DNA of 64,000 nt from Escherichia phage ECO4. Where the stretch lies: the sequence record NC_054911.1, one strand, 5' to 3'. A program made the translations under genes and the position numbers. Under the pieces are notes generated by a model. That model was not told the origin of the DNA. It did no database searches and saw only the letters and a program-made list of their open reading frames with translations. Every line of letters starts with the position of its first letter. Within the stretch, counting starts at the first letter, position 1. This document shows positions 3,585 through 51,742 of this stretch, one piece after another.

Positions 3585-3594
3585 AATAATTTCC

Positions 3595-3831
3595 TCAAAT
3601 GCAAGTAGTAATTACTCCAGTAGTGCTTATGCAGGTATTACCCATTTGCACACCTAAAGATCCATTTGTATTCACATGAAGATTATCGTCAATTTTAACT
3701 GATATTTTACCATTAGTGTGAATAACGGTGCTAGATTCAATCACAGGTTGAGTATCATTTTCAACACTAACAAATGGAACTGCTGCTAATGCAACTAAAC
3801 AAACTGCTAAGCATCCCATAACAATTTTCAT
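3595..3831 (-). CDS. small exported protein with signal peptide
   Basis: MKIVMGCLAVCLVALAAVPFVSV signal-like N-terminus; ATG at 3831 with GGAG 7 nt upstream; track start 3843 is TTG artefact; directly downstream of early promoter. Confidence 0.5.
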   Translation of the reverse strand: MKIVMGCLAVCLVALAAVPFVSVENDTQPVIESSTVIHTNGKISVKIDDNLHVNTNGSLGVQMGNTCISTTGVITTCI

Positions 3832-3868
3832 TTCATTCTCCAAATCCGTATCAGTAGTTGATAGTTGT

Positions 3869-3898
3869 ATAGTACCATAGAAGAACAGGGATGTAAAC
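3869..3898 (-). promoter_or_regulatory. early (sigma70) promoter, GTTTAC-18nt-TACTAT
   Basis: Minus-strand GTTTAC (3898-3893) and TACTAT (3874-3869), A-rich upstream element. Confidence 0.7.
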
Positions 3899-3980
3899 AG
3901 TTTTGTGAAAAAATTTTTAGGGAATCCAAAGGGTCCAGAATCATCTCTTTTTCATAAGTATAGATTTATATTACTTGTAT

Positions 3981-4003
3981 GAAAAAGGGACCCGGAGGTC
4001 CCT
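3981..4003 (-). terminator. intrinsic terminator after gene 43
   Basis: Hairpin AGGGACC-UCCG-GGUCCCU followed by U-run on minus strand. Confidence 0.6.
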
Positions 4004-4015: not shown

Positions 4016-6712
4016 TCAGCCAAACAGGAAGTCTAACGAAGCTTTTTCTTCATAGTCCATGCCAGCCGATTCACACATACCCGCAAGCGGTTTAACAAAC
4101 GATTTTTGGAACAAAGTTGAGTAGTCAATCCAAGACAGTACGTCAGAACGAATTTCTTTTGGAAGTTCTGTACCCGACGGCCAAGCAATGCATTTGTCAC
4201 CAAATGGATTTCCTTCACGCAATGGAAGAACCATTACTTTATTTCCATCCAAAATTGGAGCTACACCTAAACCGCTAACAGCTCGACGATAAGTTAGCAC
4301 ACCGCGAATATGGAACGGGCATTTAAATCCTGGCCAACCTTTATCATCATATTTCGCTATATCGTTCGCAGTTTTTACTTCAGCAATAACTTTATAGTCA
4401 AGTTGACGATATTCTTTCTCGAAGTTCTTGTAGTATTCTTGGACAGACTCTTCACCTTCTTGAAGAATACGACGAATACTTTCTTCGAGAGCTTCTTGCA
4501 CTGCTTTTGGTGTTGAACTCTGCTGAGTTTCCATACCCATGATTTTTAGATGCGGTTCAGCAAATCGTTTATCTTCCATATCATAAACGTTCAGAGCATA
4601 ACGCTTTTTCGCTTTCCAAAATCCACCAACACCCTTTGAACCAAGTGGAGGGCAAGAAATAGCTTCACGGTCCATATGCATCAGATGCTCGCGGTTATTC
4701 ATATAATCACATAACTCACGATATGCAACATCAATCATAGGTTCCATCTTTTTCTTACCGAACTGATTCATGAATTCAACTAAATCGTTCTGCTCTTTGA
4801 ATCGGTCAAGACCAACTTTTTCAATAACTTTATCTACACAAACATATACCGAATCAGTATCACCTGCTGCGATGAAATCTTCACCATTAGTTCCGCATAC
4901 TTTATTCAGATATTCATTAATTTTACGAGCAATCCACTGAATACCAACTTGGCCGAAAATTGTGATAGCAGTAGCATTTCGCAAATCATAGTAACGAAAA
5001 TGAATATTACCAAGAGCACCGTAAAGACTGTTAATAAGAATTTTACGGTTCAGCTGATTTGTGTTAGCAAGTGTAGCTGCTTTTTCACATTCTTCAATCA
5101 AACTATTGAGAACAGATTCGGTGTAATTCGATAGTTCATTTAAGAAATCATCACTGAACTTAACATATCGTTCAACTTCAGGTTTAGTTGAACAAGACCC
5201 TGCGCCTTTCATAATAATCTTTTTAATAGCTTCGGCATTCATTTCTTCAGCGAACATTTTCTTTTTCCAATCTTTACGCTGGAAAAATACTTTAGCGATT
5301 TCCTTTGGAATGATACCTTCTTGATGCTTATCATACATCCATCCATTCGGAGAACAAGAATATTCATCACTCGGTTTAGGAGCTGTTCCTGCAATATATT
5401 CATGAATTGGATGAACTTTAAACTGCCCACGAATAGTCTCAGGACTAATGTTAACCTGACGAATAATGCTCGGATACAGAGACGTCAAGTCAAAACTCAT
5501 AATATATCGACGAGCAATTGGTTTAGGTTCAAACACAAATGCACCCGGAAAACTCTGTTTAACGTGCGAACCCTGTTGAGGAATAACCTTATGTTCACCT
5601 TTCAATGAGTTAAAAATAATGGCATCCCAGGTTTTAATAGGACTCATTACACCAGAAAAAGGCATTTTAGCGTAATAAGACATACTTAAAACTAGATCGA
5701 TAAACCCGCGAATTTTATCAATTGCTTGAACTGATTCTACGTCAATGATGTTATAACTAATGTATCGTTGATGATTAGTCTCACGAAGTTTATTAATAGG
5801 ACCGTCGTATGGTAATTTACCTTTTTTGGTTTCATGCTGAGCAACTGATTCCAAAGAGAATGACGGCAAATTAGTAAATGCGAATTTCTTATACAAATCT
5901 AAATAATCAAGAATAGATACGCCATCAATAGAATAAATTTCTTTGCTACCGTACATATTTTGGATAAGTTTAGATTTTACTCGACCGATTGGAGAGAAGC
6001 GTTTCATACTACGTTCACCGAGAACCATTTTAACGCGATTCATGATATACGGAACGTCAAATCCCTCAATATTCCAACCAGTAAAAATAGCAGGTCGTTT
6101 CTGTTCCCAAAGATTAATATATTCCATGAGCATATCACGCTCATTATCGAATGGCATATAAATTACTCGGTCAAGAATTTCTTGAGGAACTTCATCACCA
6201 CCTTCACAGTCAAGCTTAGCAGCTAACTTTGCATCCCATTTTGATACTGAACCATACATTGAATTCAAAAGGTCGAAAACATAAAAACGATCGTCAATTG
6301 AATCATAATGAGTGATAGCATCAATTTCATATTCTGCTTTCATTGGGTCAGGAAATTTATCACCAGTAACCTCAATGTCACAGTTAGCTACACGAACAAA
6401 TTTTCGGTCATAAACAATTTCTGAACCATATGTATCACTGATATAAGCGAGTTTAAAATCGTTCATACCGAGAGCTTCGAGACCGATGTCTTCCATTCTC
6501 TTCATCCAATCTCGAGCATCTTTCATTGATGGAAATTTTTGAGGAGCGCAGTTTTTACCATAGATGTCTTTGTACTTTGACTCTTCCTTACAATGCCTAA
6601 ACATAGTTGGAAGATATTCTACTTCACGAGTACGTTCCTTTCCGTTTTCATCAATATAACGTTCAACAATGTTATTTCCGACTGTTTCGATAGAGATATA
6701 AAATTCTTTCAT
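4016..6712 (-). CDS. 43: DNA polymerase
   Basis: 898 aa, MKEFYISIETVGNNIVERYIDENGKERT..., exonuclease and polymerase motifs (FDIE, YGDTDS); matches recalled T4 gp43. Confidence 0.97.
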   Translation of the reverse strand: MKEFYISIETVGNNIVERYIDENGKERTREVEYLPTMFRHCKEESKYKDIYGKNCAPQKFPSMKDARDWMKRMEDIGLEALGMNDFKLAYISDTYGSEIVYDRKFVRVANCDIEVTGDKFPDPMKAEYEIDAITHYDSIDDRFYVFDLLNSMYGSVSKWDAKLAAKLDCEGGDEVPQEILDRVIYMPFDNERDMLMEYINLWEQKRPAIFTGWNIEGFDVPYIMNRVKMVLGERSMKRFSPIGRVKSKLIQNMYGSKEIYSIDGVSILDYLDLYKKFAFTNLPSFSLESVAQHETKKGKLPYDGPINKLRETNHQRYISYNIIDVESVQAIDKIRGFIDLVLSMSYYAKMPFSGVMSPIKTWDAIIFNSLKGEHKVIPQQGSHVKQSFPGAFVFEPKPIARRYIMSFDLTSLYPSIIRQVNISPETIRGQFKVHPIHEYIAGTAPKPSDEYSCSPNGWMYDKHQEGIIPKEIAKVFFQRKDWKKKMFAEEMNAEAIKKIIMKGAGSCSTKPEVERYVKFSDDFLNELSNYTESVLNSLIEECEKAATLANTNQLNRKILINSLYGALGNIHFRYYDLRNATAITIFGQVGIQWIARKINEYLNKVCGTNGEDFIAAGDTDSVYVCVDKVIEKVGLDRFKEQNDLVEFMNQFGKKKMEPMIDVAYRELCDYMNNREHLMHMDREAISCPPLGSKGVGGFWKAKKRYALNVYDMEDKRFAEPHLKIMGMETQQSSTPKAVQEALEESIRRILQEGEESVQEYYKNFEKEYRQLDYKVIAEVKTANDIAKYDDKGWPGFKCPFHIRGVLTYRRAVSGLGVAPILDGNKVMVLPLREGNPFGDKCIAWPSGTELPKEIRSDVLSWIDYSTLFQKSFVKPLAGMCESAGMDYEEKASLDFLFG

Positions 6713-14046: not shown

Positions 14047-15247
14047 ATTTTGTAATAATGTCAAACTGTTCTTTAAAGCAGAAGCTTGAATCTTGATGCT
14101 GATACAAAAATTCATATGCTTTTTCTCGCTCACGGTCATAAAGAGCTCGGTCAGATGACAGTTCTTTAATACGTTCAAACGTTGATTCCATATCATTTTC
14201 ATCAAACCAAATGATACCGCTATCATGCGAGGTCAAAGGAGTATTATCAACACGGAATTTTAAATTTTCGCCAGTAGATTTCCAAAATACCGGAATTGTT
14301 CCACATGCACCAAGCTCGAGATGAGTATATTCTAAAGAACGTTGTAGATATTTTTTATCCAACTTACTCAGCTGATAACCAAATCCGGATTTACTCATGC
14401 GTTCAAGCATTTCGCTATTTACATAACGGTCAAGAATTTGCGTTGGCAAATTAGGAGCAATTTTAATTTGGTCTACTTGATGAAGACGATAATACTCGTA
14501 TGGAATTCCTTTTTCTTTAATAGGAATGAACGCTGGAGAACGTTCCAGACCTTCCATAATAGTACTTAGTCCTGCAGGTTTAAGATGTTTTTCATGAAAA
14601 TCAAACATCTGATAAAAACCTTTCCATGTAGTCGTACGACCAATCCAACGGTTGATATTCATGTTAATTTCAGAAACATCTTTCCAGTAGGTTGATCTAA
14701 CCTTCGCAATATCCATAGGAGGCTGAAAGTTATATACTGTCGGTGCTTCTTCAATATCATCAAACAGAGAAACTGTTTCAGGATACCATTCTTTCATCAG
14801 AACTTTATTAAAATCACCATTATCAGAATGGCTAAAAATAACATCAGCTCGACGAACAGTTTCTTCTAATCCCAAATTTCGACGCAAAGAAAGAGAAGAA
14901 TGGTCATGTTGATAAACTACAACACGAACAGAAGGTTTAATGTTATCAATAATTTTTTTATAGTTATTAATAGTGTCTTCTTCAACCGAAGTAGCAGGAA
15001 CTGAATTAATAATTAGAATATCACAATCATTTACCAGCTTAAGTGTTTTATCATATTCTTTTGCCAATAAAACCGGAATTGAAAATGATTTATAATCATG
15101 CGCGCAATTACGAGTAAATGATTTATCTTTAGCATAAACCAAAGTTACTTCATGACCATTTTTAATAAACCAATCACGCTGCTCAAGAGAAAATTTAGTT
15201 ACACCGCAACCTTCAAGACCCCGAGCCAGAAAAATGCATACTTTCAT
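14045..15247 (-). CDS. a-gt: alpha-glucosyltransferase (HMC-DNA)
   Basis: 400 aa MKVCIFLARGLEGCGVTKFSLEQRDWFIKNGHEV..., matches recalled T4 alpha-gt. Confidence 0.93.
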   Translation of the reverse strand: MKVCIFLARGLEGCGVTKFSLEQRDWFIKNGHEVTLVYAKDKSFTRNCAHDYKSFSIPVLLAKEYDKTLKLVNDCDILIINSVPATSVEEDTINNYKKIIDNIKPSVRVVVYQHDHSSLSLRRNLGLEETVRRADVIFSHSDNGDFNKVLMKEWYPETVSLFDDIEEAPTVYNFQPPMDIAKVRSTYWKDVSEINMNINRWIGRTTTWKGFYQMFDFHEKHLKPAGLSTIMEGLERSPAFIPIKEKGIPYEYYRLHQVDQIKIAPNLPTQILDRYVNSEMLERMSKSGFGYQLSKLDKKYLQRSLEYTHLELGACGTIPVFWKSTGENLKFRVDNTPLTSHDSGIIWFDENDMESTFERIKELSSDRALYDREREKAYEFLYQHQDSSFCFKEQFDIITK

Positions 15248-15297
15248 TTAATATCCTCATTGTTTTGGTTTATTTTACCAAAAATTTATAAAGCAAT

Positions 15298-18356: not shown

Positions 18357-18492
18357 GATCGCAAATCATGCGTTTATGTAACTTGAGTATAATATAGCAA
18401 ACTTCAAAACTATTTACATGAGTAACACGAACAGCATTACCATTAATGAGATAATACTGTCCCTTTTTAATTTCTTTATCAACCATAACCAT
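18310..18492 (-). CDS. hypothetical protein
   Basis: 60 aa ORF directly downstream of an early promoter. Confidence 0.4.
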   Translation of the reverse strand: MVMVDKEIKKGQYYLINGNAVRVTHVNSFEVCYIILKLHKRMICDRAVFSSVAKEIKLHG

Positions 18493-18522
18493 ATCAATTC
18501 CTCAAAGGCAATTCATATGTTA

Positions 18523-18552
18523 ATAATACCACAGTTTGAGCTTGTTGTAAAC
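18523..18552 (-). promoter_or_regulatory. early promoter, GTTTAC-18nt-TATTAT
   Basis: Same architecture upstream of ORF 18310-18492. Confidence 0.65.
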
Positions 18553-18620
18553 AACTTTGTGAAAATTATTTTAGGGAATGATAAGAAGGGAACGATAGCT
18601 TAGAATGGTAATATACAGAA

Positions 18621-18647
18621 TGTGAGAAAGAAAGGCCCAGAGGGCCC
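18621..18647 (-). terminator. intrinsic terminator after nrdH
   Basis: GC-rich hairpin GGCCC-AGA-GGGCC followed by U-rich tract. Confidence 0.55.
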
Positions 18648-23168: not shown

Positions 23169-23204
23169 AATAAAACCCTTACCTTAAATAGATAAGGGTA
23201 TTTA

Positions 23205-23480: not shown

Positions 23481-23909
23481 AAAAGAAATTTGAGTTTCAA
23501 GCCATTCAATGTACTCTGCGGCAGCTTGCATTAAATTTCCTTCATAACCATCGTTATTTTCTTGTGCAGCTAATTTAGCTAATGCGTATGAAATACGTTC
23601 ACCTTGAAAATCGGCTTTAGGCTTCTGAACAACTTGATTAGTTCGCTCTACAACTTCTTCAATTTCGCCATTTTCGACTGATTCAGTATTCCACAAGCAC
23701 CAATACGTAATTGGCTTATCATAGATGTTAATAATCTTTCCGTCGGAAAGTTCAATTTCAATAATTCCAGTATCAGGCTCTATATCATCTTCACATTCTT
23801 TTGCAAGTTCACGAACTTTAAAGACAGTACCTGCACTAAGTTCCGGCCAGTAATTACATAGCCCTGTATCAACACGATTAATTCTAAACCACTTATCTAC
23901 TGTAATCAT
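23424..23909 (-). CDS. pin: Pin-like protein (inhibitor of host Lon protease)
   Basis: 161 aa from MITVDKWFRINRVDTGLCNYW; position next to gene 49; track start is TTG artefact. Confidence 0.7.
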   Translation of the reverse strand: MITVDKWFRINRVDTGLCNYWPELSAGTVFKVRELAKECEDDIEPDTGIIEIELSDGKIINIYDKPITYWCLWNTESVENGEIEEVVERTNQVVQKPKADFQGERISYALAKLAAQENNDGYEGNLMQAAAEYIEWLETQISFSDQKIRQYKRLNQMFYNT

Positions 23910-23949
23910 GTCCCATCTCCATATCAATTAAGTCATTTATTGTAGGTTC

Positions 23950-23979
23950 ATTATATACTGTTTCTTCATCAGTGTAAAC
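23950..23979 (-). promoter_or_regulatory. early promoter, GTTTAC-18nt-TATAAT
   Basis: Upstream of pin. Confidence 0.6.
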
Positions 23980-24031
23980 CGGTTCTTCCGGCTCTGGCTC
24001 TACAGTTTCCCATCTAACCGCCCACCAAGGT

Positions 24032-26294: not shown

Positions 26295-27296
26295 TTACTT
26301 AATTAACTGTAAAGCTTGTTCAAGACGATCCAAGCGATTAACAGATTCTTCCCAAATCTTTTTAGCCTTCTCATATTCTTTCTGCGCTTTATTAGAAATT
26401 TCTAGAACTTCTTTATAAGCTTTTTCTAGTGCAACAACTTCTGGACGAATTTCTACCGGTTCAGGTGAATCATCAAGATTATCCATTAGTTCCTCAAGGG
26501 TAGTTTCTTCTTTAGGAGTATTCACAATTTCATCACATTTTTGTTGATAAATTTCTTTATCAGTAGGTGAGTACGCGCACTTTACTTCACGAAGACTAAT
26601 TACAATTTTATATCCTTCCCAACCGCATATATTCTTAAAAGGATATGTATGAATATTTTCTACTGTTTCCATACAAAGTAATGCGGTCTCTAATTGACGA
26701 GTTATAGTGCTAGCAATTGAGAAAAATTTATTAATATTCTTTTGGTTAGTTTCTGGTGTAAAAAATCCATAATTCACAAAAATAGATACTTTATTTTTAT
26801 CAAGTTCATATTCTTTTATGATAATCATATCAGAAGCCAAAGGATGAATTTGACGATAATCGCCATAACATAATTTAGAAGCTGATTTTAGAATCTGTCC
26901 TTTGAAAAGTCTGAAATTACTAATCCAACGACGAGTAAAAATATTCTCAGGGTCTTCTTTATTATTAAGATGATAAGAATTAACATCACCGAACCAATTA
27001 TATCCTACTACATCTTTGGTTCGTTTAATTTCTTTCCCAAAATTACCAAGAATATCCCGATTAACCAAATATGAAAGAAGACGAGACTCTTTAAAGGTTT
27101 TCTTGATAACATCTTTATCTACACGGCTAGAAATTTTACGAATTTCATGAATAAATTTAGTAGAAGAAACAATACTTGCATCAACACTATTGAGCCATTG
27201 ATTGATAATAGAAAGAACGCTATTCTGACTAGACACAGGTTTAACTTTATCATCAATAACGCTATTGAATGATTTGATATATTCGTTACGAGTCAT
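26295..27296 (-). CDS. hypothetical protein with C-terminal coiled coil
   Basis: ATG 27296 (MTRNEY) with RBS GAGGAG, directly downstream of early promoter; track start extended. Confidence 0.55.
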   Translation of the reverse strand: MTRNEYIKSFNSVIDDKVKPVSSQNSVLSIINQWLNSVDASIVSSTKFIHEIRKISSRVDKDVIKKTFKESRLLSYLVNRDILGNFGKEIKRTKDVVGYNWFGDVNSYHLNNKEDPENIFTRRWISNFRLFKGQILKSASKLCYGDYRQIHPLASDMIIIKEYELDKNKVSIFVNYGFFTPETNQKNINKFFSIASTITRQLETALLCMETVENIHTYPFKNICGWEGYKIVISLREVKCAYSPTDKEIYQQKCDEIVNTPKEETTLEELMDNLDDSPEPVEIRPEVVALEKAYKEVLEISNKAQKEYEKAKKIWEESVNRLDRLEQALQLIK

Positions 27297-27324
27297 AATA
27301 ATCTCCTCAGTAGAAAGTAAGAAC

Positions 27325-27354
27325 ATTATACCACATCCTTGTGGCAAAGTAAAC
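27325..27354 (-). promoter_or_regulatory. early promoter, GTTTAC-18nt-TATAAT
   Basis: Upstream of ORF 26295-27296. Confidence 0.65.
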
Positions 27355-28376
27355 TAGTTCAGTGCATTTAGTGCATTGTTCAGTTTAGAACGTTGCTTCG
27401 TAAGATTTTTGACTTTTTCTTGAGCTTTTTCTAGCATCTTTTCAGCTTCTAGCACTTCATTGGTCACTTTAACGAGTTCATCATCTACTGCCTTAAGAGA
27501 CTTCTCAATCGCATCGGCGTGCCATTTTTCTACAGGTTTAAAATTTGAATTTTCAGTAGGAAGAAAACTCACTTTATTAAGTTTACATGCATCTATATTG
27601 CTTGAGCTATACATCCAAAATTTAGGATCGTTTGATGAGTAATTGGATAAATTTAAGATATCTTGCACTTCCTGCTTTTTCTCTTGCGGGACTTCGTCCT
27701 TTCTCAAAAAATCGTATTTAAATGAAACGATCATATCAAGTTCATATGTTGTTGTGTCTAATTTAAATCGCTCAAAACGAGGTAAAATCTTAGACTGAAC
27801 AGCGGCAACAACATCCATATACTTAAATGCTTCTGTCAACTGCGATTTAAGGCATTCGCAAATTGAAAGAGAATTTTTTGTATTAGGTTTAAAGCTAATT
27901 CGCGCAGTTCTGTTATTTTCTTTTAATGGTCTTACTTCCATCTGAAGAGTATAACCATCAAATTTCAGGTTCTTTAAGTTAATGTCAGAACCTTTTAATC
28001 GACTAGCAGTCGACAAAATTTGCTTTAATTGTCTACGGAACAGAGCAATAAATCTCCATTCAATACGATAATGATTTGGATTGAAAAATCCAGATGATAA
28101 ATCGACCTTACTTTGACCAACGCCTTGAACAAATAGAGGATTTTTATAATCAATAGTTTTACAGAAATCTGTGAGCTGCTCACGAGCAGTCATTTGTGTA
28201 ATATACCCCGCTTTACTAAAATTACTCACCCATTCACTGCTATTTAGATATTTAAAGTGATGAATAGCATGATTAACTTTATCAGGGTCTAAATTATTTT
28301 CACACAAAAATGTCATAACATTACGAGTATCGCTGGCAGTACGAACCATATCTTCAATTTGAGAACGAGTTTTCAT
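27354..28376 (-). CDS. hypothetical protein with C-terminal coiled coil
   Basis: 340 aa ORF, C-terminal heptad-rich segment. Confidence 0.55.
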   Translation of the reverse strand: MKTRSQIEDMVRTASDTRNVMTFLCENNLDPDKVNHAIHHFKYLNSSEWVSNFSKAGYITQMTAREQLTDFCKTIDYKNPLFVQGVGQSKVDLSSGFFNPNHYRIEWRFIALFRRQLKQILSTASRLKGSDINLKNLKFDGYTLQMEVRPLKENNRTARISFKPNTKNSLSICECLKSQLTEAFKYMDVVAAVQSKILPRFERFKLDTTTYELDMIVSFKYDFLRKDEVPQEKKQEVQDILNLSNYSSNDPKFWMYSSSNIDACKLNKVSFLPTENSNFKPVEKWHADAIEKSLKAVDDELVKVTNEVLEAEKMLEKAQEKVKNLTKQRSKLNNALNALN

Positions 28377-29739: not shown

Positions 29740-30267
29740 TTATGCGAGTACCGTCTTTAACCGTTCTTCAAACTTCCGAAGAGTATTTTGGCGTTCAGCT
29801 CTTTGCTTTTTGTAAGTTTCAATACGCTCTGAAATGAGAGTGTATCGTTCATTTACTGATTCTTTCATAAAATCAGGAATTTGACGAGAAGCTTTAATCT
29901 CGTCAAATTTATCAATAACAGCTTGCTCTTCAGCAATTAAGTTATCATACATTAAAATATCTTTCTTGATGAACTCAATATCTTCTTGAGTTACACGAGA
30001 TAATTTAGATGCTTTATCCTTTTTGTACTGTTCGTTAGTATCACGAGACCAGTGTAATGTACGATTTTTATTCGTATTCTTATAAATTTCTACAATACCA
30101 ATCTCATCAATAATAACGATCCAATTCCAACGGGATTTGTAAATTTGTCCTCCATCAACAGTGATTTCACCTCCGATTGAGATGTCATTAAAGAACTTGC
30201 TTTGTGCTTCAGATTTAAATTTACCATCGTTGTAATTTACCAAGTTGAAAATATCTTTAGCGTTCAT
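29740..30267 (-). CDS. hypothetical protein
   Basis: 175 aa, RBS GGAGGAA, directly downstream of early promoter. Confidence 0.55.
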   Translation of the reverse strand: MNAKDIFNLVNYNDGKFKSEAQSKFFNDISIGGEITVDGGQIYKSRWNWIVIIDEIGIVEIYKNTNKNRTLHWSRDTNEQYKKDKASKLSRVTQEDIEFIKKDILMYDNLIAEEQAVIDKFDEIKASRQIPDFMKESVNERYTLISERIETYKKQRAERQNTLRKFEERLKTVLA

Positions 30268-30295
30268 TTTCTGTTCCTCCGTAGTTGATAGTTGT

Positions 30296-30325
30296 ATAGT
30301 ACCACAGAGGAACAGTCTTGTAAAC
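30296..30325 (-). promoter_or_regulatory. early promoter, GTTTAC-18nt-TACTAT
   Basis: Upstream of ORF 29740-30267. Confidence 0.7.
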
Positions 30326-30327
30326 CA

Positions 30328-30642
30328 CTAAAAGAAACTTCTTTCACAATTTTTTCCACTGAACCAGGCGCTCACTGCTTTCTTGGTCTCAGGAGCAGTG
30401 TTATCCATAAACCATTCAAAGGCAGCCTTTTTATGATTCTGGAGGGCTTCTCGGGCTTTAATCTGCTCACGGTCTATTAACACTAACATATGAGCCTTTC
30501 TTGTCACCATGGGCTTCTTATGATTTTTTGAATACTCCCAGTCATTTGTCCATCGCATTGTTGTTGCGAACTGAAATACTGCTTCTTTAATTTTAGTTTC
30601 GTAAATTTCACGAGCCTTTGAGTATAACATCACTACCTCCAT
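30328..30642 (-). CDS. hypothetical protein
   Basis: 104 aa ORF. Confidence 0.5.
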   Translation of the reverse strand: MEVVMLYSKAREIYETKIKEAVFQFATTMRWTNDWEYSKNHKKPMVTRKAHMLVLIDREQIKAREALQNHKKAAFEWFMDNTAPETKKAVSAWFSGKNCERSFF

Positions 30643-30731: not shown

Positions 30732-31700
30732 TTATTTCAAAAGAGTAACCTCAGCAATTTCTTCCCAACCGTTTTTGTCGGTCATAATAAAGTCAGCAAG
30801 ATAAAGAGCAGTACGCAGTGAAACATTGCGTAAACGATTAACATTAACTTTCATCCATGATAATGCTTTATAAGTTTCTTCATCAGAAAGACCGCGCTTT
30901 TGCATCATGTCAGTTGAAAGAATAACATCTTCAACCCTGACCATAATTTCTTCATTAGTGTGAACACCCAAATCTAAATAAACCGAGCGGGACACTAATG
31001 CTTGTAAATGTGGAGCAAGTTTAGTACCACGGTCTAATTCGCGGTCAATGTCAACGTTTGTGATAAAAACAATCGTTCCTTTAAATTCAAACTCACGCTC
31101 AATGCCTTTTTCTTCTAAGTAAGAAGACGCAGTGCTCCAGCAGACTTTACGGGTCTCTCCAGTGTCCAGAGCGGCTTTTAGAAGATTAAGAATGTCCATA
31201 TCAGAGAAAACATCTACATCATCAATCAAAAGGACAGAATTCTCTTCACGATTATTCCAAAGCTGCTCATAAAGACCAATACCAGAGATTTTACCATTAA
31301 TGCTTTTATATTCAATGTATCCAATATCATTTGCTTTATTTAAAGCTTTATCTAAAGAATACGTTTTACCAATACCTGCTGCGCCAGAGATAATTAATGA
31401 ACGAATATTTCCGTTAATAATACCATTCGTCATCATTCCCATAACATTAAATCTTTTATTAATGCGGGTTTTCATATCTTCATATGATTCTTTAACTTCT
31501 TCAACTTTTACACCATCATATGAAATATCTGATTTGTAAACCCAAACACCGCGACGTTTACCGTCAATTTCAACAAAAACTTTACCATCTCCTTGTGCAT
31601 CTACCGGAGCATTATCTGGGAACCATTCGCCTAAGAGCTCAAAAGTTCCAGAGATTTCTTTACCGAAGTAGATACCCTTATTGATAGTTACAGTTTTCAT
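30732..31700 (-). CDS. P-loop ATPase
   Basis: Walker A GAAGIGKT and Walker B LLIDDVDVF; ATG 31700 with GGAG RBS; downstream of early promoter; track start is TTG artefact. Confidence 0.6.
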   Translation of the reverse strand: MKTVTINKGIYFGKEISGTFELLGEWFPDNAPVDAQGDGKVFVEIDGKRRGVWVYKSDISYDGVKVEEVKESYEDMKTRINKRFNVMGMMTNGIINGNIRSLIISGAAGIGKTYSLDKALNKANDIGYIEYKSINGKISGIGLYEQLWNNREENSVLLIDDVDVFSDMDILNLLKAALDTGETRKVCWSTASSYLEEKGIEREFEFKGTIVFITNVDIDRELDRGTKLAPHLQALVSRSVYLDLGVHTNEEIMVRVEDVILSTDMMQKRGLSDEETYKALSWMKVNVNRLRNVSLRTALYLADFIMTDKNGWEEIAEVTLLK

Positions 31701-31734
31701 TTTATTCTCCAAATCCGTATCAGTTGATAGTTGT

Positions 31735-31764
31735 ATAGTACCATAAAGCTTTATGCTTGTAAAC
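31735..31764 (-). promoter_or_regulatory. early promoter, GTTTAC-18nt-TACTAT
   Basis: Upstream of ATPase gene 30732-31700. Confidence 0.7.
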
Positions 31765-31779
31765 CGTTTTGTGAAAAAA

Positions 31780-31812
31780 TTTTGAAATAAAAAAGGGAGC
31801 CCGAAGGCTCCC
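31780..31812 (-). terminator. intrinsic terminator (UUCG-loop hairpin plus U-tract)
   Basis: GGGAGCC-UUCG-GGCUCCC followed by UUUUUUAUUUC. Confidence 0.65.
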
Positions 31813-31814
31813 TA

Positions 31815-34805: not shown

Positions 34806-34937
34806 TACATACTCCTCTGAATCATATCAATAATGTTGTTCACCAGATTATAAGTAAACATTGGGTAATTATATTGAATCATCACATACACAACAAACAA
34901 AACTTTCATTCTCTTCTCCTTGGCAGTTGACAAGATT

Positions 34938-34967
34938 ACTATACCATAACCTTGTCAACTTGTAAAC
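34938..34967 (-). promoter_or_regulatory. early promoter, GTTTAC-18nt-TATAGT
   Basis: Upstream of small ORFs near 34900. Confidence 0.6.
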
Positions 34968-34969
34968 CA

Positions 34970-35143
34970 TTAAATGACGTTTTCGATAAAATTCTGAAGC
35001 TTTGTATGAGCATCAACCATGATTTTCATTTCTTCTTTGGCAAAAGCTGTGCCTCTTTCACGAGAAGAACATTCATAGTCAGAAACTGCATTAGCATATT
35101 CTTCAATTAGCTTCATTAAAAACATCTGCTTTTCAGTTTTCAT
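34970..35143 (-). CDS. small hypothetical protein (57 aa)
   Basis: ATG with RBS GGTGGAA; below ORF-track size cutoff. Confidence 0.35.
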   Translation of the reverse strand: MKTEKQMFLMKLIEEYANAVSDYECSSRERGTAFAKEEMKIMVDAHTKLQNFIENVI

Positions 35144-35569: not shown

Positions 35570-35721
35570 GCCATGTGAGTTGCAACTTCATCACACATAT
35601 TATAACGTTTCTTAAGAAGTTCTACAAGTTCTTCACTGGTAACTTCATCCATGTCGACGAAAAAATCACCATTAATGATGACGTAGATATTTCCTTCTTG
35701 ATTAAGTGCTTCAATTTTCAT
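35533..35721 (-). CDS. hypothetical protein
   Basis: 62 aa from MKIEALNQ with RBS GAGGAGAA downstream of early promoter; track ORF over-extended through the promoter. Confidence 0.5.
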
Positions 35722-35749
35722 GATGTTCTCCTCTTTATCCGATGGTTGT

Positions 35750-35779
35750 ATAGTATCACAGCTCAAACGGAAAGTAAAC
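35750..35779 (-). promoter_or_regulatory. early promoter, GTTTAC-18nt-TACTAT
   Basis: Upstream of ORF 35533-35721. Confidence 0.7.
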
Positions 35780-35781
35780 CG

Positions 35782-35810
35782 GTAAAATGAAAAAGTCTCC
35801 CGAAGGAGAC
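35782..35810 (-). terminator. intrinsic terminator (UUCG-loop hairpin plus U-tract)
   Basis: GUCUCC-UUCG-GGAGAC followed by UUUUUCAUUUU. Confidence 0.65.
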
Positions 35811-35815
35811 TAATG

Positions 35816-37705: not shown

Positions 37706-37933
37706 TCATTTTGGTTTACCTTCTTTAACGAAATCAGGATAAGGATAAAATCCCGAATAAAATCCTTCACCTTTATGATTGATGCATCCTTTATTAGAAC
37801 AATAGCACCAATAATCGAAATCACAAGCCATTTCATCGTTGCATAAAGCAAAAACAACCGGCCACTTACACTTTTCACAGTGGGCATTTTTAAGAATACT
37901 AGTTTGGCTCATAACCATGTAACCTTTAAGCAA
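37706..37933 (-). CDS. hypothetical Cys-rich protein
   Basis: 75 aa with CEKCKW...CYCSNKGC. Confidence 0.45.
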   Translation of the reverse strand: MLKGYMVMSQTSILKNAHCEKCKWPVVFALCNDEMACDFDYWCYCSNKGCINHKGEGFYSGFYPYPDFVKEGKPK

Positions 37934-39455: not shown

Positions 39456-39917
39456 TCATTGAGTTTTAATTACTGCTTTAGAAGCCTTTCCTGGTAAACG
39501 ACGACTGTTGATAATTGCCATCCTACATTGAAGTGACGGGTCTTTGAACTTCGCATTAGGTTTACAAACTGTAAATCCAAGCCAAAGATTTCCATCTGTG
39601 ATTTCTAAACGTCCAGGACGATATTCAACCCCATCAATAAAATCCTCGTCAATGTCAGGACGCGGAGGCATACTCAGGAATTCATTAACTTCTAAAACAT
39701 GGTCTTTTATTTTATGGAATAATTCAAAAACATATGTCTCATCAATCTCCCGTTGAATTGCACGATCAAGAAGATGTTGAGAATATTTTAGATGAAACGA
39801 TGAGACTCCTGCTGCTTTTGATGCCTCACGAATCTCATTGTTAATTTGACGAAACTCCGACTCAAAGTGACGACGAAGCTTATTTCGACGGATAAAAACT
39901 TCTGTATTGATAGTCAT
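39456..39917 (-). CDS. regB: RegB site-specific endoribonuclease
   Basis: 153 aa MTINTEVFIRRNKLRRHFESEFRQ...; downstream of early promoter; matches recalled T4 RegB. Confidence 0.9.
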   Translation of the reverse strand: MTINTEVFIRRNKLRRHFESEFRQINNEIREASKAAGVSSFHLKYSQHLLDRAIQREIDETYVFELFHKIKDHVLEVNEFLSMPPRPDIDEDFIDGVEYRPGRLEITDGNLWLGFTVCKPNAKFKDPSLQCRMAIINSRRLPGKASKAVIKTQ

Positions 39918-39944
39918 GTTATTCTCCTCTTAACTGATAGAAAA

Positions 39945-39974
39945 ATTATACCACAGTCAAGAGGAAAAGTAAAC
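39945..39974 (-). promoter_or_regulatory. early promoter, GTTTAC-18nt-TATAAT
   Basis: Upstream of regB. Confidence 0.7.
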
Positions 39975-39976
39975 AG

Positions 39977-40297
39977 TTATTCTTTAAATCTAATCAATTT
40001 ATTCATAGACTTTGAAACCTCTGCACGAACCTCATGTAGATTTTTGAGCTGTTCAAGACGCTGCTCATAGTAAGCAATTTCATCTTCTTCGAGACAGTCC
40101 TGTGAATCTTCTTTAAGATAACGTGCATAGTCCTGGAAAGCGTTACGAACTACTTCCTGGAAGTCATCAAGACTTTGAATTTTCTTAGGAGCAGCAGATA
40201 CACGACGAGGGGCAGTATAATACTCATAACCAAACCCTGCGCTTAATTGAGCCATTAGTATTTTTCCTCTGGTTGGAACACTGCGCGACAAGCCCAC
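39977..40297 (-). CDS. hypothetical protein
   Basis: 106 aa ORF. Confidence 0.5.
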
Positions 40298-42607: not shown

Positions 42608-43024
42608 TTAAATGTAAATATTTTTGCCGTAATACTTGTACCAGTGTGGCTTCATTAAAATTTTTTCATCGAGTCGTTGTTGACTCAATTTAATAGCTGA
42701 TTTGCATGGATTATAATCATTTTTCCATTCTGCTGGAATATCGCTGATGTCAGGAACTTCAGTATCTTTTATACTAAACCCGCGTTTTAAGCATTCCGTT
42801 ATAATGTCTGATTGACGCTTTCGCAAAAATTCTAACTTATCGTAAAAGAACGTAACATGACCAGAACCTAAAATAAACTCGGAAGATATTTTAAAATCTT
42901 TAACCCGCTTACCATTTGCCACATGTTTACGAACTATACCAAAAACACGTGGCAATTCACGGTATTCTGCGATTAAATGCTGATCAGCAAGTTCAGATAC
43001 TAAAGTCAAATTAATACGAGTCAT
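42608..43024 (-). CDS. denV: endonuclease V (pyrimidine-dimer DNA glycosylase)
   Basis: 138 aa [29 protein letters not shown]...; downstream of early promoter. Confidence 0.93.
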
Positions 43025-43049
43025 TTTATCCCTCCAAGTAACTGTGAAT

Positions 43050-43079
43050 ATACTATCACAGTTCTAGGAGAAAGTAAAC
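43050..43079 (-). promoter_or_regulatory. early promoter, GTTTAC-18nt-TAGTAT
   Basis: Upstream of denV. Confidence 0.7.
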
Positions 43080-43083
43080 AACT

Positions 43084-43614
<531 letters not shown>

Positions 43615-45892: not shown

Positions 45893-46486
45893 TTATTTCA
45901 GAGAATTAATATATTCCTGAACATCGGCAGAGGTAGTTTCAACCCCAGAAATATTGCCATTAAAGGTTTCAACTCGGGCAAGAGTATCTTCAATATCAAC
46001 CTTAGTCAGCGCTGCAATTTCAACTACATCATCAGCAGTACTAATTCCGAGGGCATTCGCGGCGCGAGTTTCACGGATATATTCCAATTTAACTGCAAGT
46101 TCTTGGCGAGCATCATCTAACTCAACTACTTTCTTGGCGATTTCAATTCGCATTTCAGCATAACCATCAGCTTTAGTAGTCAGCTGCTCAGCTGTTCGAC
46201 GATATAGTAAACCGAGTTTAGCATGCATTGTTACATCTTGACCTTCAGAAAGGAGCTTGCGAATTTCGCGCTCTTTTGATTCGGCCTGCTTATTCTTTTC
46301 GACAATAAGTTCACGAATACGCTTTTCTTCGTTAATAGATTTAATGGAAGCAGTTTTTAGGTCTTTAATCTTATCAAGTAGTTTTGCTGCTGCAGCAGTA
46401 TACTGTTCTTCAACAGATAGATTTTTAGCCATAACAGAACCAAGTTTAGTGCGAATAAACTCAACAATTTTCTTCAGTGTGTTCAT
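45893..46486 (-). CDS. hypothetical coiled-coil protein
   Basis: 197 aa, long heptad-rich helices; UUCG hairpin after stop. Confidence 0.5.
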
Positions 46487-46528
46487 AGTATTTCCTTAGG
46501 TTGATTAAAATTAAAATCCACAGAAAAA

Positions 46529-47047
46529 TTATATCATGCTATTTAAGAGATGTAAACTATTTTTAATTTTACAAATTCGTTCAGCTTCTTCAACAGCGGC
46601 AGTGATAATGCTTTTAGCTATAGGAGTACTAATACTAGTAGCTTTTACACTTAACACGATTTCTTTATCTTTACCAGGCCAACCCCACGATTTTTCACCA
46701 TGAGTGCCTTTAATTACAGCAGACACCTCAAGTGAGCATCCATTATCACATGTTTTTACATTAACAACCCAAGTGTCACTTTTCTCAACCGGTTTATCCC
46801 AGTAAATATTGAGAATACGCGGGACATCAAATTTAGCAGGGCAAATCTTAACCGTAAGACCTTCGCTTTCTAGCCAATTAATAAGAGGACGTTCATACAT
46901 GCGGCGATGTGGGCTTTGAACTCGACAAGCCTTGTACCCATTGCTTGCGGCTTCACTAAGCTCTTCTAATACCTGCTTTTGCATTATTGATAAGATACCA
47001 TCAAAAGATTTTTCGGAAGTTTCATTCAGTTCGGTATAAAGAGACAT
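46529..47047 (-). CDS. hypothetical protein
   Basis: ATG 47047 (MSLYTE) with RBS GAGGAAA; track start is TTG artefact. Confidence 0.5.
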   Translation of the reverse strand: MSLYTELNETSEKSFDGILSIMQKQVLEELSEAASNGYKACRVQSPHRRMYERPLINWLESEGLTVKICPAKFDVPRILNIYWDKPVEKSDTWVVNVKTCDNGCSLEVSAVIKGTHGEKSWGWPGKDKEIVLSVKATSISTPIAKSIITAAVEEAERICKIKNSLHLLNSMI

Positions 47048-47103
47048 AACAGTTTTCCTCAAATTATAGGCTCATAATATCTCAATCATGAGCCTATGTA
47101 AAC

Positions 47104-47367
47104 TTATTTCATATTATTGAAATATTCTTCTGCAATTTCGTCGTTATCATGATAAACTTTAGAAGACAGTTTAACATAACCTTCAGCAGTGAACATGTTA
47201 ATCACAACCTTTACAGTATACCACTGACCATCTTCATTACCCATTACTGCGTAAGTTTCAAACATCGGATGATCAGGACCGATAACTTTAATATCATTCA
47301 CTGTACGACCAAAATCTTCTGAAACACATTTCATAAAGAAGTTGAACAGTTCGCCGTAATTATCCAT
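47104..47367 (-). CDS. hypothetical protein
   Basis: ATG 47367 with GGAG RBS downstream of early promoter; track start is TTG artefact. Confidence 0.5.
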   Translation of the reverse strand: MDNYGELFNFFMKCVSEDFGRTVNDIKVIGPDHPMFETYAVMGNEDGQWYTVKVVINMFTAEGYVKLSSKVYHDNDEIAEEYFNNMK

Positions 47368-47410
47368 TTCATTCTCCAAGTTGTTTTCTGTATCAGTAGT
47401 TGATAGTTGT

Positions 47411-47440
47411 ATAGTACCATGGAAGAACAGGGATGTAAAC
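47411..47440 (-). promoter_or_regulatory. early promoter, GTTTAC-18nt-TACTAT
   Basis: Upstream of ORF 47104-47367; about 70 bp near-identical to the 3841-3912 copy. Confidence 0.7.
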
Positions 47441-47573
47441 AGTTTTGTGAAAAATTTTTTAAAAAGTTTTGGGGAATTCTAGGGCAAGGAGGGGAAATCA
47501 AAGGATAGGATAATATATTATAAAGGGTAGAAACTAAATGATGCCTAGAGAGGCCTGGAAAGGCCTAGATACC

Positions 47574-47601
47574 AAAAAGCCCCAACCTTTTGGTCGGGGC
47601 T
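47574..47601 (-). terminator. intrinsic terminator (10-bp stem, GNRA loop, U5)
   Basis: AGCCCCGACC-AAAA-GGUUGGGGCU followed by UUUUU. Confidence 0.75.
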
Positions 47602-50472: not shown

Positions 50473-50620
50473 TTAAACCAATTAAAAATGCTACTACAAG
50501 TGAAAACACATTTTCTGCTGTAGTCAATAATCCGCATATAAATCCAACAAACATTGAAAAACTAAAAGCGGAAGCAGAAATTGCAATAGCAACATTTCGA
50601 ATTAATTCACAACGTTTCAT
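50435..50620 (-). CDS. small membrane protein
   Basis: 61 aa, two hydrophobic helices, RBS GGAG, downstream of early promoter. Confidence 0.5.
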   Translation of the reverse strand: MKRCELIRNVAIAISASAFSFSMFVGFICGLLTTAENVFSLVVAFLIGLIAIVMDKISKGE

Positions 50621-50648
50621 TTTATTCTCCTCAGTAGTTGATAGGGTA

Positions 50649-50678
50649 ATAGTATCACAACTAAAACCCTATGTAAAC
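50649..50678 (-). promoter_or_regulatory. early promoter, GTTTAC-18nt-TACTAT
   Basis: Upstream of ORF 50435-50620. Confidence 0.7.
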
Positions 50679-50696
50679 AACTTTGTGAAAAATTTA

Positions 50697-50981
50697 TTAC
50701 AAAAGATTTTTAGCAATAATTTTAAGCTGAGCTACTGAAATATGCTTGGCTTTAAACAAAGCAGTTTCTTCAGCAGGTGAGATAACGATTGTAGCACCAT
50801 CTTTCTTAGCGGACCATCCATCACCCAGGTAAACAGTACCTTTGACTTCTTCGCCATCAACCAGGCTAATCATCGGTTTACCTTCACGTCCTTTGTTTGC
50901 TTTAATAACTTCAGAAGTAAGGGTCGCTTCAGTCAAAGTAGAAGCGTTAGTCGTTGAAGTGAATTCTTGATAAGTTTTCAT
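50697..50981 (-). CDS. ipI: internal protein I-like (capsid-targeted, DNA-co-injected protein)
   Basis: N-terminus MKTYQEF capsid-targeting sequence; position immediately before 57B as in T4; early promoter upstream. Confidence 0.7.
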   Translation of the reverse strand: MKTYQEFTSTTNASTLTEATLTSEVIKANKGREGKPMISLVDGEEVKGTVYLGDGWSAKKDGATIVISPAEETALFKAKHISVAQLKIIAKNLL

Positions 50982-51016
50982 TTTATTTTCCTAAATTAAT
51001 AAATGTGTTGATGGAG

Positions 51017-51046
51017 ATAATATCACTTCTCCATCATCGTGTAAAC
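51017..51046 (-). promoter_or_regulatory. early promoter, GTTTAC-18nt-TATTAT
   Basis: Upstream of ipI. Confidence 0.7.
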
Positions 51047-51063
51047 AACTTTGTGAAATTATT

Positions 51064-51742
<679 letters not shown>

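Follow-up and report, generated by a model that had tools for sequence, protein, structure and literature searches.

What is the promoter-like element at 3829..3923 in the genome of Escherichia phage ECO4 (NC_054911.1), at the gene 43/imm.1 locus, and why does it recur almost unchanged at distant places in the same genome? This question was addressed in a stretch of 64,000 nt, here called the window, which is a Tequatrovirus (T4-like) segment running from uvsX to gene 8 with ~95-98% identity to known phages. The promoter and hairpin coordinates below refer to the minus strand. At this locus, the -35 element (3893-3898) and the -10 element TACTAT (3869-3874) are followed by a GGAG-containing leader and an ATG at 3831, which starts a 78-aa accessory ORF; the corresponding -35 in T4 is at 27080. 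The reading preferred here, with a probability of about 0.87, is that this and similar elements are early promoters (Pe) of a T4-like phage, that the long copies among them are promoter-early stem-loop (PeSL) cassettes, and that hairpins embedded in the promoters probably restrict translation of read-through RNA. The early-promoter consensus and the PeSL linker cassettes are already known in T4-type phages. The result confirms a typical Tequatrovirus early region and places 15 likely early promoters on the map of the genome.

An earlier sequence-only reading had listed 13 early sites. All 13 are present on the minus (early) strand, with the G of GTTTAC at 3898, 18552, 23979, 27354, 30325, 31764, 34967, 35779, 39974, 43079, 47440, 50678 and 51046. 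The motif search that it had proposed, when run on the window, returned 10 exact matches to GTTTAC-N18-TAnTAT, all on the minus strand, where 0.06 were expected from 100 shuffles. With the relaxed pattern GTTTAC-N17-19-TAnnAT, 17 matches were found against 0.85 expected, and one of these is on the plus strand. The list of 13 was incomplete, as at least two good sites had been missed: one upstream of e.6 (46484..46582; GTTTAC at 46557, -10 TATAAT) and an e.7-type promoter (47045..47128; GTTTAC at 47103, -10 TATTAT; T4 70359). The complete T4 genome contains 38 such sites, without exception on the early strand, and 33 are followed by a Shine-Dalgarno sequence (SD) and an ATG 15-70 nt downstream. 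Fourteen of the 15 window sites are orthologous to T4 sites located upstream of named genes, namely imm.1, 55.6, pin, nrdC.4, nrdC.8, nrdC.10, mobD.2, mobD.5, regB, ipIII, e.7, e.8, trna.4 and ipI. The T4 RefSeq and GenBank records carry no promoter features, the close relative KJ668714.2 has an annotated terminator and no annotated promoter, and no Rfam family overlaps any of the cassettes.

The architecture of the sites is highly uniform. Exact GTTTAC, which occupies positions -36 to -31 in the published consensus, is found in 15/15 sites and is followed in all of them by 18 nt. The "fixed 18 nt" of the first description equals the canonical 17-bp spacer when the -35 is read as TTTACa. Its list of -10 hexamers (TACTAT, TATAAT and TATTAT) was too narrow: site 34967 has TATAGT and site 43079 has TAGTAT, of which only the second fits the more general TAnTAT. 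An extended -10 TG (-15/-14) is present at 13 sites, and the distance from the -10 end to the ATG is 25-43 nt throughout. A nearby downstream ORF with a GGAG-type ribosome binding site had been described for each; GGAG occurs in 11 of the 15 leaders. Counting from the G of GTTTAC, the A at -4 is conserved (1.59 bits; local consensus "aaA" in the site alignment). Also, the A/T-rich tract said to precede the sites is visible in the mean A+T of the 30 upstream nt (0.73 vs 0.65 for the genome), with three sites at or below 0.6. The primary lists of T4 early promoters are reportedly those of Liebig and Ruger (1989), Wilkens and Ruger (1994/1996) and Miller et al. (2003). The early consensus of T4-like phages places GTTTAC at -36 to -31 and an A-rich segment at -40 to -44 (Nolan 2006, PMC1524935). 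T4 early promoters have been described as a combination of UP, -35, TGn and -10 elements (Hinton 2010, PMC2988021), and the PST/T4 PeSL promoter pattern as TTTACW-N17-TAYWAT (Comeau 2014, PMC4122927). The window sites share with T4 Pe the GTTTAC -35, the 17 bp effective spacer, TGn, the TAnnAT -10 and the A-rich UP, as well as a position in front of early genes, on the strand that is transcribed early. No substantial difference is seen, except that a few different accessory ORFs are found under the same promoters. In addition, the T4 orthologues of the downstream genes are classed as early RNA, and published work places regB under "a typical early promoter". The identity of the sites as early promoters is supported by the consensus, the T4 orthology and this published work. 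Right after infection, the unmodified sigma-70 RNA polymerase of the host would bind the composite element (A/T-rich UP, (G)TTTACa, 17-bp spacer, TGn and TAnnAT) and would start ~7 nt downstream of the -10, giving a leader of 20-35 nt. In this leader the SD, usually GGAG, would be a target of RegB, the phage nuclease.

About half of the promoters are located inside a hairpin, in which the promoter spacer pairs with the leader or the SD and which only read-through RNA forms. Such -10-bracketing hairpins are found at 7-8 of the 15 sites. In the cassette upstream of nrdC.8 (30265..30350; T4 53943), pairing between the spacer CTGTTCCTC and the SD region GAGGAACAG gives a folding energy of -23.8 kcal/mol (z -6.5) in the read-through RNA. 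The regB early promoter (39915..39999; T4 62797) has a similar arrangement, with TTTTCCTCTTGACTG of the spacer paired to CAGTTAAGAGGAGAA of the SD region (-22.4 kcal/mol, z -5.6). At the ipIII-type promoter (43022..43104; T4 66498), the hairpin AACTGTGA/TCACAGTT extends over the SD. Other hairpins bracket the -10 at the promoter upstream of mobD.2 (34907..34992; T4 57990; 10-13 bp, AGTTGACAAG/CTTGTCAACT), at the e.7-type promoter (ATAGGCTC/GAGCCTAT), upstream of trna.4 (50618..50703; T4 73572; ATAGGGT/ACCCTAT) and upstream of the ipI-type internal protein gene (50979..51071; T4 73939; TGATGGAG/CTCCATCA). The summed stems amount to 91 bp in the window against 67.7 +/- 3.7, and to 196 against 150 +/- 5 in T4. 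Folding energies of the read-through RNAs range from -12 to -24 kcal/mol, with z scores between -2 and -6.5, whereas the promoters' own transcripts, taken from the inferred +1, fold at 0 to -1.6 kcal/mol. The promoter spacer, which precedes the inferred +1, contains the 5' arm. The minimum-free-energy folds at 30325, 39974 and 43079 engage all four SD nucleotides in pairs, and the hairpins at 34967, 47103, 50678 and 51046 leave the SD uncovered.

The structure of these hairpins, their strand bias and their covariation are direct observations of the present analysis. Of the 11 lineages sampled, 9 have the regB hairpin, each with its own distal stem. A T-A pair of the ipIII hairpin in T4 is a C-G pair in the window, and in the ipI hairpin AGGTA/TACCT becomes GAG/CTC between T4 and the window. 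The complementarity between spacer and leader would allow read-through RNA to fold into a hairpin, with the SD covered in several cases, while the transcript of the promoter itself would start inside the hairpin and stay open. We infer that, most likely, translation and access of RegB are in this way confined to promoter-proximal early transcripts. A wider proposal is that the embedded hairpins form a general "transcript-origin filter" across the Tevenvirinae, in which only RNA from a gene's own promoter has a free GGAG; the odds for this generalization are even. In such a filter the 5' arm would be the spacer, the loop would hold TGn and the -10, and the 3' arm would lie on the leader or SD, a layout that is proposed for regB, nrdC.8, 30.8 and the ipIII-type promoter. 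Read-through RNA would then be translationally silent and also shielded from RegB, which needs single-stranded GGAG. If this is true, the RegB nuclease and similar products would be made only in the first 2-3 min of infection.

The most serious alternative is that the inverted repeats around the -10 act as DNA cruciforms and endonuclease VII hot spots, or as terminators or attenuators, and not as translation-controlling hairpins. In RB49 and phi1, stem-loops overlap the -10, terminator activity has been shown for one of them, and it has been speculated that they are targets of a recombination protein (Arbiol 2010, PMC2839356). The four hairpins that leave the SD uncovered would also suit such a role. 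On the other hand, a U-run follows the separate upstream AGGGA...TCCCT terminators but is absent after every -10-bracketing hairpin. G-U pairs occur in the stems of the latter, and the sense strand folds more strongly than the antisense strand beyond the composition baseline (P ~0.005, for sequences that are partly non-independent). In addition, the invariant part of the regB stem is the SD/anti-SD pairing itself, which at least 7 of the 11 lineages show. A role in DNA or in termination is therefore considered unlikely, and translation-controlling hairpins remain the preferred reading.

Hairpins that sequester a ribosome binding site and contain an internal promoter have been described for T4 e, soc, 49 and I-TevI (Uzan and Miller 2010, PMC3014915). 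As in the gene e type, the SD would be paired in long transcripts derived from upstream, and a promoter in the 5' arm or loop would give a shorter, translatable transcript without the inhibitory arm. The difference is the class of the internal promoter, which is late in the gene e type (TATAAATA), with expression delayed, and early in the window, where the arrangement would confine expression to the first minutes. Related elements are also known from the internal protein (IP) locus of the T-even phages (Repoila et al. 1994, as far as it is related in Arbiol 2010, PMC2839356). According to that account, the highly polymorphic genes ipI, ipII and ipIII are flanked by T4 early promoters whose AT-rich stem-loops vary in size. 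Compared with the T4 IP locus, ipIII and ipII are missing from the window and an IP-type gene is located elsewhere. Because of this absence, the ipIII-type promoter is fused to denV in the window. Unlike in the IP locus, the hairpin-in-promoter arrangement is also found at regB, nrdC.8, mobD.2 and trna.4 in the window and at dmd, 30.8 and motB in T4. No description of such a hairpin for regB, or for Pe promoters genome-wide, was found in the accessible literature. A covarying regB hairpin that sequesters the SD in many genera would be of modest interest for post-transcriptional control in T4.

A second class of hairpins is located upstream of the promoters at five sites. These hairpins have T-runs and look like intrinsic terminators. 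Downstream of gene 43, AGGGACC...GGTCCCT followed by a T-run (3986..4003) is 88 nt upstream of the 3898 promoter and corresponds to the annotated terminator of KJ668714.2; it forms the stem-loop part of a PeSL-type unit. The early promoter of the 55.6 orthologue (18490..18577; -35 at 18547-18552, -10 TATTAT; T4 41706), whose UP element TTTTCACAAAGTT is common to the cassette family, has the terminator-like hairpin GGGCCCTCTGGGCCT with a T-rich tail (18633..18647) 81 nt upstream of 18552. In the cassette upstream of nrdC.10 (31698..31789; T4 55384), the hairpin AGGGAGCC...GGCTCCCT with T6 (31794..31813) is 30 nt upstream of 31764. Upstream of mobD.5 (35719..35804; T4 58780), AGTCTCC...GGAGACT with a T-run (35794..35811) is only 15 nt from 35779. 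The fifth terminator-like hairpin (47578..47601) is found 138 nt upstream of the 47440 promoter, in front of the e.8 cassette (47365..47465; T4 70696). It is duplicated at 48135-48158, and the pair flanks a 557-nt insertion. Neither an upstream hairpin nor a -10-bracketing hairpin is present at 23979, at 46557 or at 27354, the last being the early promoter of the nrdC.4 orthologue (27294..27379; -10 TATAAT; T4 50973). Site 23979, the candidate early promoter upstream of pin (23907..24004; T4 47452), is the weakest of the set. It is located inside the coding region of 49.1, has no TGn and is preceded by G+C-rich DNA, features that suggest that it may be weak or inactive.

Three of the sites, at 3.9, 31.7 and 47.4 kb, had been described as near-identical across promoter and leader, and this was borne out. 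The copies at 3.9 and 47.4 kb (3845-3919 vs 47387-47461) are 96% identical over 75 nt. The 31.7 kb copy shows ~92% identity when a 3-nt indel is allowed, with 100 aligned nt of a 111-nt segment. In the ungapped repeat D3 (3821-3855 vs 31690-31724; 94%), the similarity runs 11 nt into the ORF. The composite repeat is seen in the direct-repeat families D1-D3 and in the alignment, with paralogue identities of 86-96%, and partial members of the cassette family are found at 30325, 50678 and 18552. These copies of ~75-100 nt are also present at the three places in T4. The nrdC.10 cassette is 100% identical to that of T4 over 111 nt. In general, the long copies show 94-100% identity to their orthologues and 86-92% among themselves. 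Homogenization between the three long copies is weak, because they are closer to their orthologues than to each other, and strong concerted evolution was rejected on the same comparison.

A subfamily of the promoters shares ~60-100 nt, which run from the UP element through the -35, the -10, the initial transcribed region and the SD and, in some members, into the first codons. The long copies correspond to the PeSL cassettes, known in T4-type phages as promoter-plus-terminator linkers (Arbiol et al. 2010, PMC2839356; Comeau et al. 2014, PMC4122927). Like these, they are composites of ~70-100 bp with an AT-rich region, early promoter, SD and ATG, and have a stem-loop just upstream (AGnA-loop-TCnT terminators) or overlapping the -10. 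They are also repeated in the genome, adjoin variable ORFs and are found at both ends of some replacements. Two differences from PeSL were observed: cassettes explain a minority of the differences between the window and T4, and the T4-type stem-loops overlapping the -10 are AT-rich and without U-tracts, which makes them unlikely terminators.

The recurrence of cassettes was followed across T4-type genomes. An exact 21-nt core occurs in 21 places on 6 IMG/VR contigs, before 8 different genes including motA, and the cassette core precedes at least 14 distinct unrelated genes in T4-type genomes. The module table, whose main cassette subfamily is ACAACTATC, holds 10 spacer types and 16 downstream gene clusters, of which 2 are ATG-calling artefacts; leader clustering is rough, as the internal ATG of "gaATGaaATG" was sometimes taken as the start. 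In this table every major spacer type occurs with 2-3 unrelated genes, and there are four-gamete sets. Spacer and leader modules have been reassorted among the cassettes of T4-type genomes. The long copies probably arose via duplication and recombination and not by convergence, since arbitrary spacers recur before unrelated genes and modules are reassorted.

Convergent selection for promoter and leader strength, in place of descent or recombination, could explain why the functional elements are common to all members and why the invariant positions of the alignment are mostly known contact positions. Also, T4 early promoters are described as holding extra conserved information beyond the standard elements (Hinton 2010, PMC2988021). 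However, the identity covers spacer positions without a consensus requirement, and specific 18-nt spacers recur before unrelated genes. In one genome, the stretch from GTTTAC to the SD is identical before two different genes (L010, L022). In addition, the orthologous spacers of the imm.1 locus differ by a clustered 3-nt patch, which is of the e.8 type in the window and of the nrdC.8 type in T4. Convergence is very improbable and already largely refuted, which leaves duplication and recombination as the preferred origin of the long copies.

It had also been suggested that the cassettes are natural substrates for recombination that can shuffle accessory genes. This agrees with the published PeSL model and with the cassettes that precede unrelated genes and exchange modules. 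Homologous recombination at the linkers would insert, delete or swap accessory ORFs while expression is kept. Excised mini-circles, which would result from recombination between neighbouring cassettes, also belong to the PeSL description (Arbiol 2010, PMC2839356). The accessory ORFs of the window that differ from T4 are the 78-aa ORF, an unrelated 172-aa ORF driven by the e.7-type promoter and denV, which replaces ipIII. The spacer and initial transcribed region of the e.6 promoter are not homologous to those of the T4 e.6 promoter. The indels between the window and T4 (n=20) were derived from a synteny chain made by dynamic programming, with junctions inspected at the base level. Of the 20, 2 have both ends in cassettes, where 0.05 would be expected (P ~0.0008), and 3 have one end or both in a cassette, where 1.8 would be expected (P 0.26). 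Cassettes as the dominant breakpoint sites between the window and T4 were rejected on the latter value. Cassettes could account for a small share of the differences, 2-3 of 20 or ~10-15% of the indels, and caution is needed; in most of the remaining events, homing endonucleases or introns were gained or lost. The indel of the 78-aa ORF is flanked by just an 8-nt repeat, ATGAAAAT, and not by two cassettes.

A generic sigma-70 consensus scan of the window gave no enrichment, with 93 matches found against 88 expected from shuffled sequence, indicating that the signal is specific to the T4-type form. The least credible explanation of all takes some or all sites for accidental sigma-70-like matches or for middle promoters that depend on MotA. 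This frequency of generic matches, the atypical site 23979 and a MotA-box middle promoter at the nearby site 52523 might point to it. Against it, the GTTTAC pattern is >100-fold enriched and strand-exclusive, no TGCTT MotA box is present at the required spacing in the 15 sites, all of which are 25-43 nt upstream of an SD and ATG, and 14 of the 15 are conserved in T4. A candidate MotA box at 31764 (AAGCTTTA in the spacer) was rejected for its wrong spacing to the -10. A weaker additional site is present at 18106.

A whole-window search places the pattern GTTTAC-N18-TAnTAT far above chance, with 10 matches, all on the minus strand, against 0.06 expected, and a relaxed pattern gives 17 matches against 0.85 expected. 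All 13 sites named in the sequence-only reading are present, but the set is incomplete, as the good sites at 46557 and 47103 (coordinates of the G in GTTTAC) were overlooked; a weaker additional site is found at 18106. The -10 hexamers listed in that reading are mostly correct, except at 34967 (TATAGT) and 43079 (TAGTAT). The proposed placement in front of an ORF with a ribosome-binding site is borne out, as an SD and an ATG are located 25-43 nt past the -10 at every site; the GGAG type ascribed to the SD is found in 11 of the 15 leaders but not in the other four. The supposedly fixed distance of 18 nt also holds, although it equals the canonical 17-bp spacer when the -35 hexamer is read as TTTACa. 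An extended -10 TG is present at 13 of the 15 sites. A generic sigma-70 scan of the window showed no enrichment (93 found, 88 expected), which ties the signal specifically to the T4-type form. The least convincing promoter candidate is site 23979 (pin), located within a coding region, lacking TGn and preceded by G+C-rich sequence. At 52494-52523 (minus strand), in front of gene 1 (dNMP kinase, 241 aa), GTTTAATGCTTCA is followed by TATAAT; this was rejected as an early promoter, as it has a TGCTT MotA box at middle-promoter spacing.

The window has a G+C content of about 35%, and queries with 3 kb around the finding and 24 kb from mid-window are approximately 95-98% identical to hundreds of Tequatrovirus (T4-like) genomes. 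Its colinear counterpart in T4 (NC_000866) spans about 22.4-87.5 kb, from uvsX to gene 8. A sign change in GC skew near 52-56 kb marks the switch of transcription from the early (minus) strand to the late (plus) one. The cassette at 3841-3912 directly follows gene 43 (DNA polymerase, 4016-6712, minus strand). Mapping onto T4 identified orthologous sites for 14 of the 15 window sites, preceding imm.1, 55.6, pin, nrdC.4, nrdC.8, nrdC.10, mobD.2, mobD.5, regB, ipIII, e.7, e.8, trna.4 and ipI. The promoter at 46557, in front of e.6, lacks a sequence counterpart in T4, whose e.6 locus uses another promoter of this type. Across the complete T4 genome, GTTTAC-N18-TAnnnT occurs 38 times on the early strand and never on the other, with an SD and ATG just downstream at 33 of the 38 sites. 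This orthology and strand exclusivity support the interpretation as early promoters, and we infer promoter activity at the exact window positions. The original observation is confirmed with small corrections, and published work on T4-type phages already covers both the promoter class and the cassette idea. The T4 reference contains an ambiguous base N in the e.7 early promoter spacer (ataggctNatg, around 70345); the window has a C at this position, which completes a hairpin arm.

In roughly half of the promoters, the stretch immediately following the -10 is the reverse complement of the spacer. Hairpins between the spacer and the leader or SD, with the -10 in the loop, are located at 30265-30350, 34907-34992, 39915-39999, 43022-43104, 47045-47128, 50618-50703 and 50979-51071 (all minus strand), and the same design is found at the compared loci L030, L034 and L039-L044. 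The hairpin arms differ in sequence between sites. The summed best Watson-Crick stems amount to 91 bp in the window versus 67.7 +/- 3.7 bp in shuffles, and stems of at least 7 bp occur at 7 of 15 sites versus 6.7% in cross-site controls; genome-wide in T4, the values are 196 bp versus 150 +/- 5 bp and 9 of 33 sites versus 4%. For read-through RNA spanning the -35 to the ATG, folding energies at seven sites are -12 to -24 kcal/mol (z -2.0 to -6.5), and only 2.8% of random 65-nt segments reach -18 kcal/mol. For RNA beginning at the predicted +1 of the promoter itself, they are 0 to -1.6 kcal/mol; since the 5' arm is part of the promoter spacer, the hairpin would form in read-through RNA only. 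Pairing takes in the whole SD at nrdC.8, regB and the ipIII-type/denV site, and at 34967, 47103, 50678 and 51046 the stem just surrounds the -10. No U-run follows any of the -10-embedding hairpins. Comparing T4 with the window, a T-A pair of the ipIII stem has become C-G by a double change, and AGGTA/TACCT in the ipI stem has become GAG/CTC. In 17 of 22 cases the sense strand gives the more stable RNA fold; the sense-antisense difference averages -3.4 kcal/mol, compared with -1.6 expected from composition (P ~0.005). This result, obtained with partly non-independent sequences, favours a role of the hairpins at the RNA level.

Of 11 sampled lineages, nine carry the regB hairpin (Tequatrovirus, two IMG/VR clades, Gelderlandvirus, Kanagawavirus, Karamvirus, Jiaodavirus, HMGUkp2 and Gaprivervirus); it is missing in Biquartavirus and Krischvirus. 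It folds at -16 to -25 kcal/mol (z -3.3 to -6.9), and in at least 7 of the 11 lineages an anti-SD TCTCC just past the -35 pairs with the SD. The distal stem is different in each lineage, with covariation across the nine. RegB requires single-stranded GGAG (Durand 2006), so that the hairpin on read-through RNA would shut out RegB as well as ribosomes. SD-sequestering hairpins are known from T4 e, soc, 49 and I-TevI (Uzan and Miller, PMC3014915), where the internal promoter is late, whereas at regB it is early; for regB, this review describes just RegB self-cleavage at the SD. In RB49 and phi1, PeSLs (promoter-early stem-loop cassettes) have stem-loops between the -35 and -10 or over the -10 (Arbiol 2010, PMC2839356), and AT-rich stem-loops on T4 early promoters at IP loci are attributed there to Repoila 1994. 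In the literature covered, no account was found of this SD-hairpin design, covarying across genera, at early promoters like that of regB. The covarying SD-sequestering hairpin in early promoters represents a modest, testable extension of a known mechanism.

The near-identity reported for some cassettes is confirmed, with 96% identity between 3845-3919 and 47387-47461 over 75 nt; the 31.7 kb copy reaches about 92% if a 3-nt indel is accommodated (100 nt aligned within a 111-nt segment). In the ungapped repeat D3, similarity extends 11 nt inside the ORF, and partial relatives are found at 30325, 50678 and 18552. These long copies are also present in T4 (27.08, 55.38 and 70.70 kb), and orthologues are 94-100% identical versus 86-92% for paralogues, indicating that the copies are old and not strongly homogenised. 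At the imm.1 locus, the spacer starts with ATCCC in the window, like the e.8 cassette, and with AAGAC in T4, like the nrdC.8 cassette; for this clustered patch, short-tract exchange between paralogues is the best explanation. Six IMG/VR contigs contain 21 exact occurrences of the 21-nt core GGTACTATACAACTATCAACT, preceding imm.1, a 78-aa ORF, nrdC.8, nrdC.10, e.8, motA, an 87-aa ORF and a 37-aa peptide, and in one genome (loci L010 and L022) the sequence from GTTTAC to SD is identical before two different genes. When the window, T4 and the IMG/VR core loci are tabulated by module, the spacers fall into 10 types and the downstream genes into 16 clusters; two clusters are ATG-calling artefacts, leaving at least 14 distinct genes. 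Every main spacer type is joined to 2-3 unrelated genes, and spacer and leader types form four-gamete combinations, which largely rules out convergence as the origin of the similarity and shows that cassettes were dispersed and reassorted, as the PeSL model proposes (Arbiol 2010, PMC2839356; Comeau 2014, PMC4122927). Five promoters are preceded, at a distance of 15-138 nt, by a terminator-like AGGGA...TCCCT hairpin with a T-run, which is the stem-loop type of the PST/T4 pair (Comeau 2014, PMC4122927).

The suggestion that cassettes are substrates for gene shuffling has qualitative support. Among the 20 indels or replacements of more than 30 nt between window and T4 in the early region, two have both ends in cassettes (0.05 expected, P ~0.0008), but only three touch a cassette with at least one end (1.8 expected, P 0.26). 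The first, a 233-nt insertion that separates imm.1 from the 3898 promoter, carries a 78-aa accessory ORF (3585-3831, minus strand) with a signal-peptide-like N-terminus, between the gene 43 terminator/early promoter and imm.1; the ORF is missing from T4, polymorphic, and present in 317 phage records, one copy each. The only flanking repeat is the 8-nt ATGAAAAT, taken from the start-codon region, and it points to a microhomology-mediated indel. In the second, ipIII and ipII (1094 nt) are missing, a T4 span from the ipIII cassette to the GTTTAC-N17-TACTAT cassette of denV, a promoter with its own SD-sequestering hairpin; at 43022-43104 (T4 65359-66454), the ipIII-type promoter is joined directly to denV, with a leader unlike that of T4. 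In the third, an unrelated 172-aa ORF takes the place of T4 e.7 (46513-47052, minus strand), with both junctions in leaders of consecutive cassettes, so that the swapped unit is leader, ORF and next promoter. Many of the other events concern homing endonucleases or introns (segA region, mobB, mobC region, I-TevII intron, mobD region). Absent from the window relative to T4 are mobB (15238-15263; T4 37817-38679), the nrdD group I intron with I-TevII (22160-22163; T4 44814-45850) and the segC region (57306-57311; T4 80217-80775). Mobile endonuclease elements explain more of the differences from T4 than promoter cassettes do.

A 557-nt insertion relative to T4 at 47604-48126 (region 47569-48161, minus strand) is flanked by a duplicated 36-nt terminator hairpin (94% identical) and carries, behind a TATAAATA late-promoter motif, an IP-like 112-aa ORF; its start, MKSYTQFLNEA, resembles the capsid-targeting N-terminus of internal proteins. 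Here too, a regulatory repeat delimits a module. The window contains ten tRNA genes (Arg, Asn, Tyr, Met, Thr, Ser, Pro, Gly, Leu and Gln; 48835-49662, minus strand), compared with eight in T4, and segB, the homing endonuclease gene of the T4 tRNA cluster, appears to be absent. Near the pin/49 region, a 63-nt direct repeat (23194-23256 and 23407-23469) is 86% identical between copies 213 nt apart.
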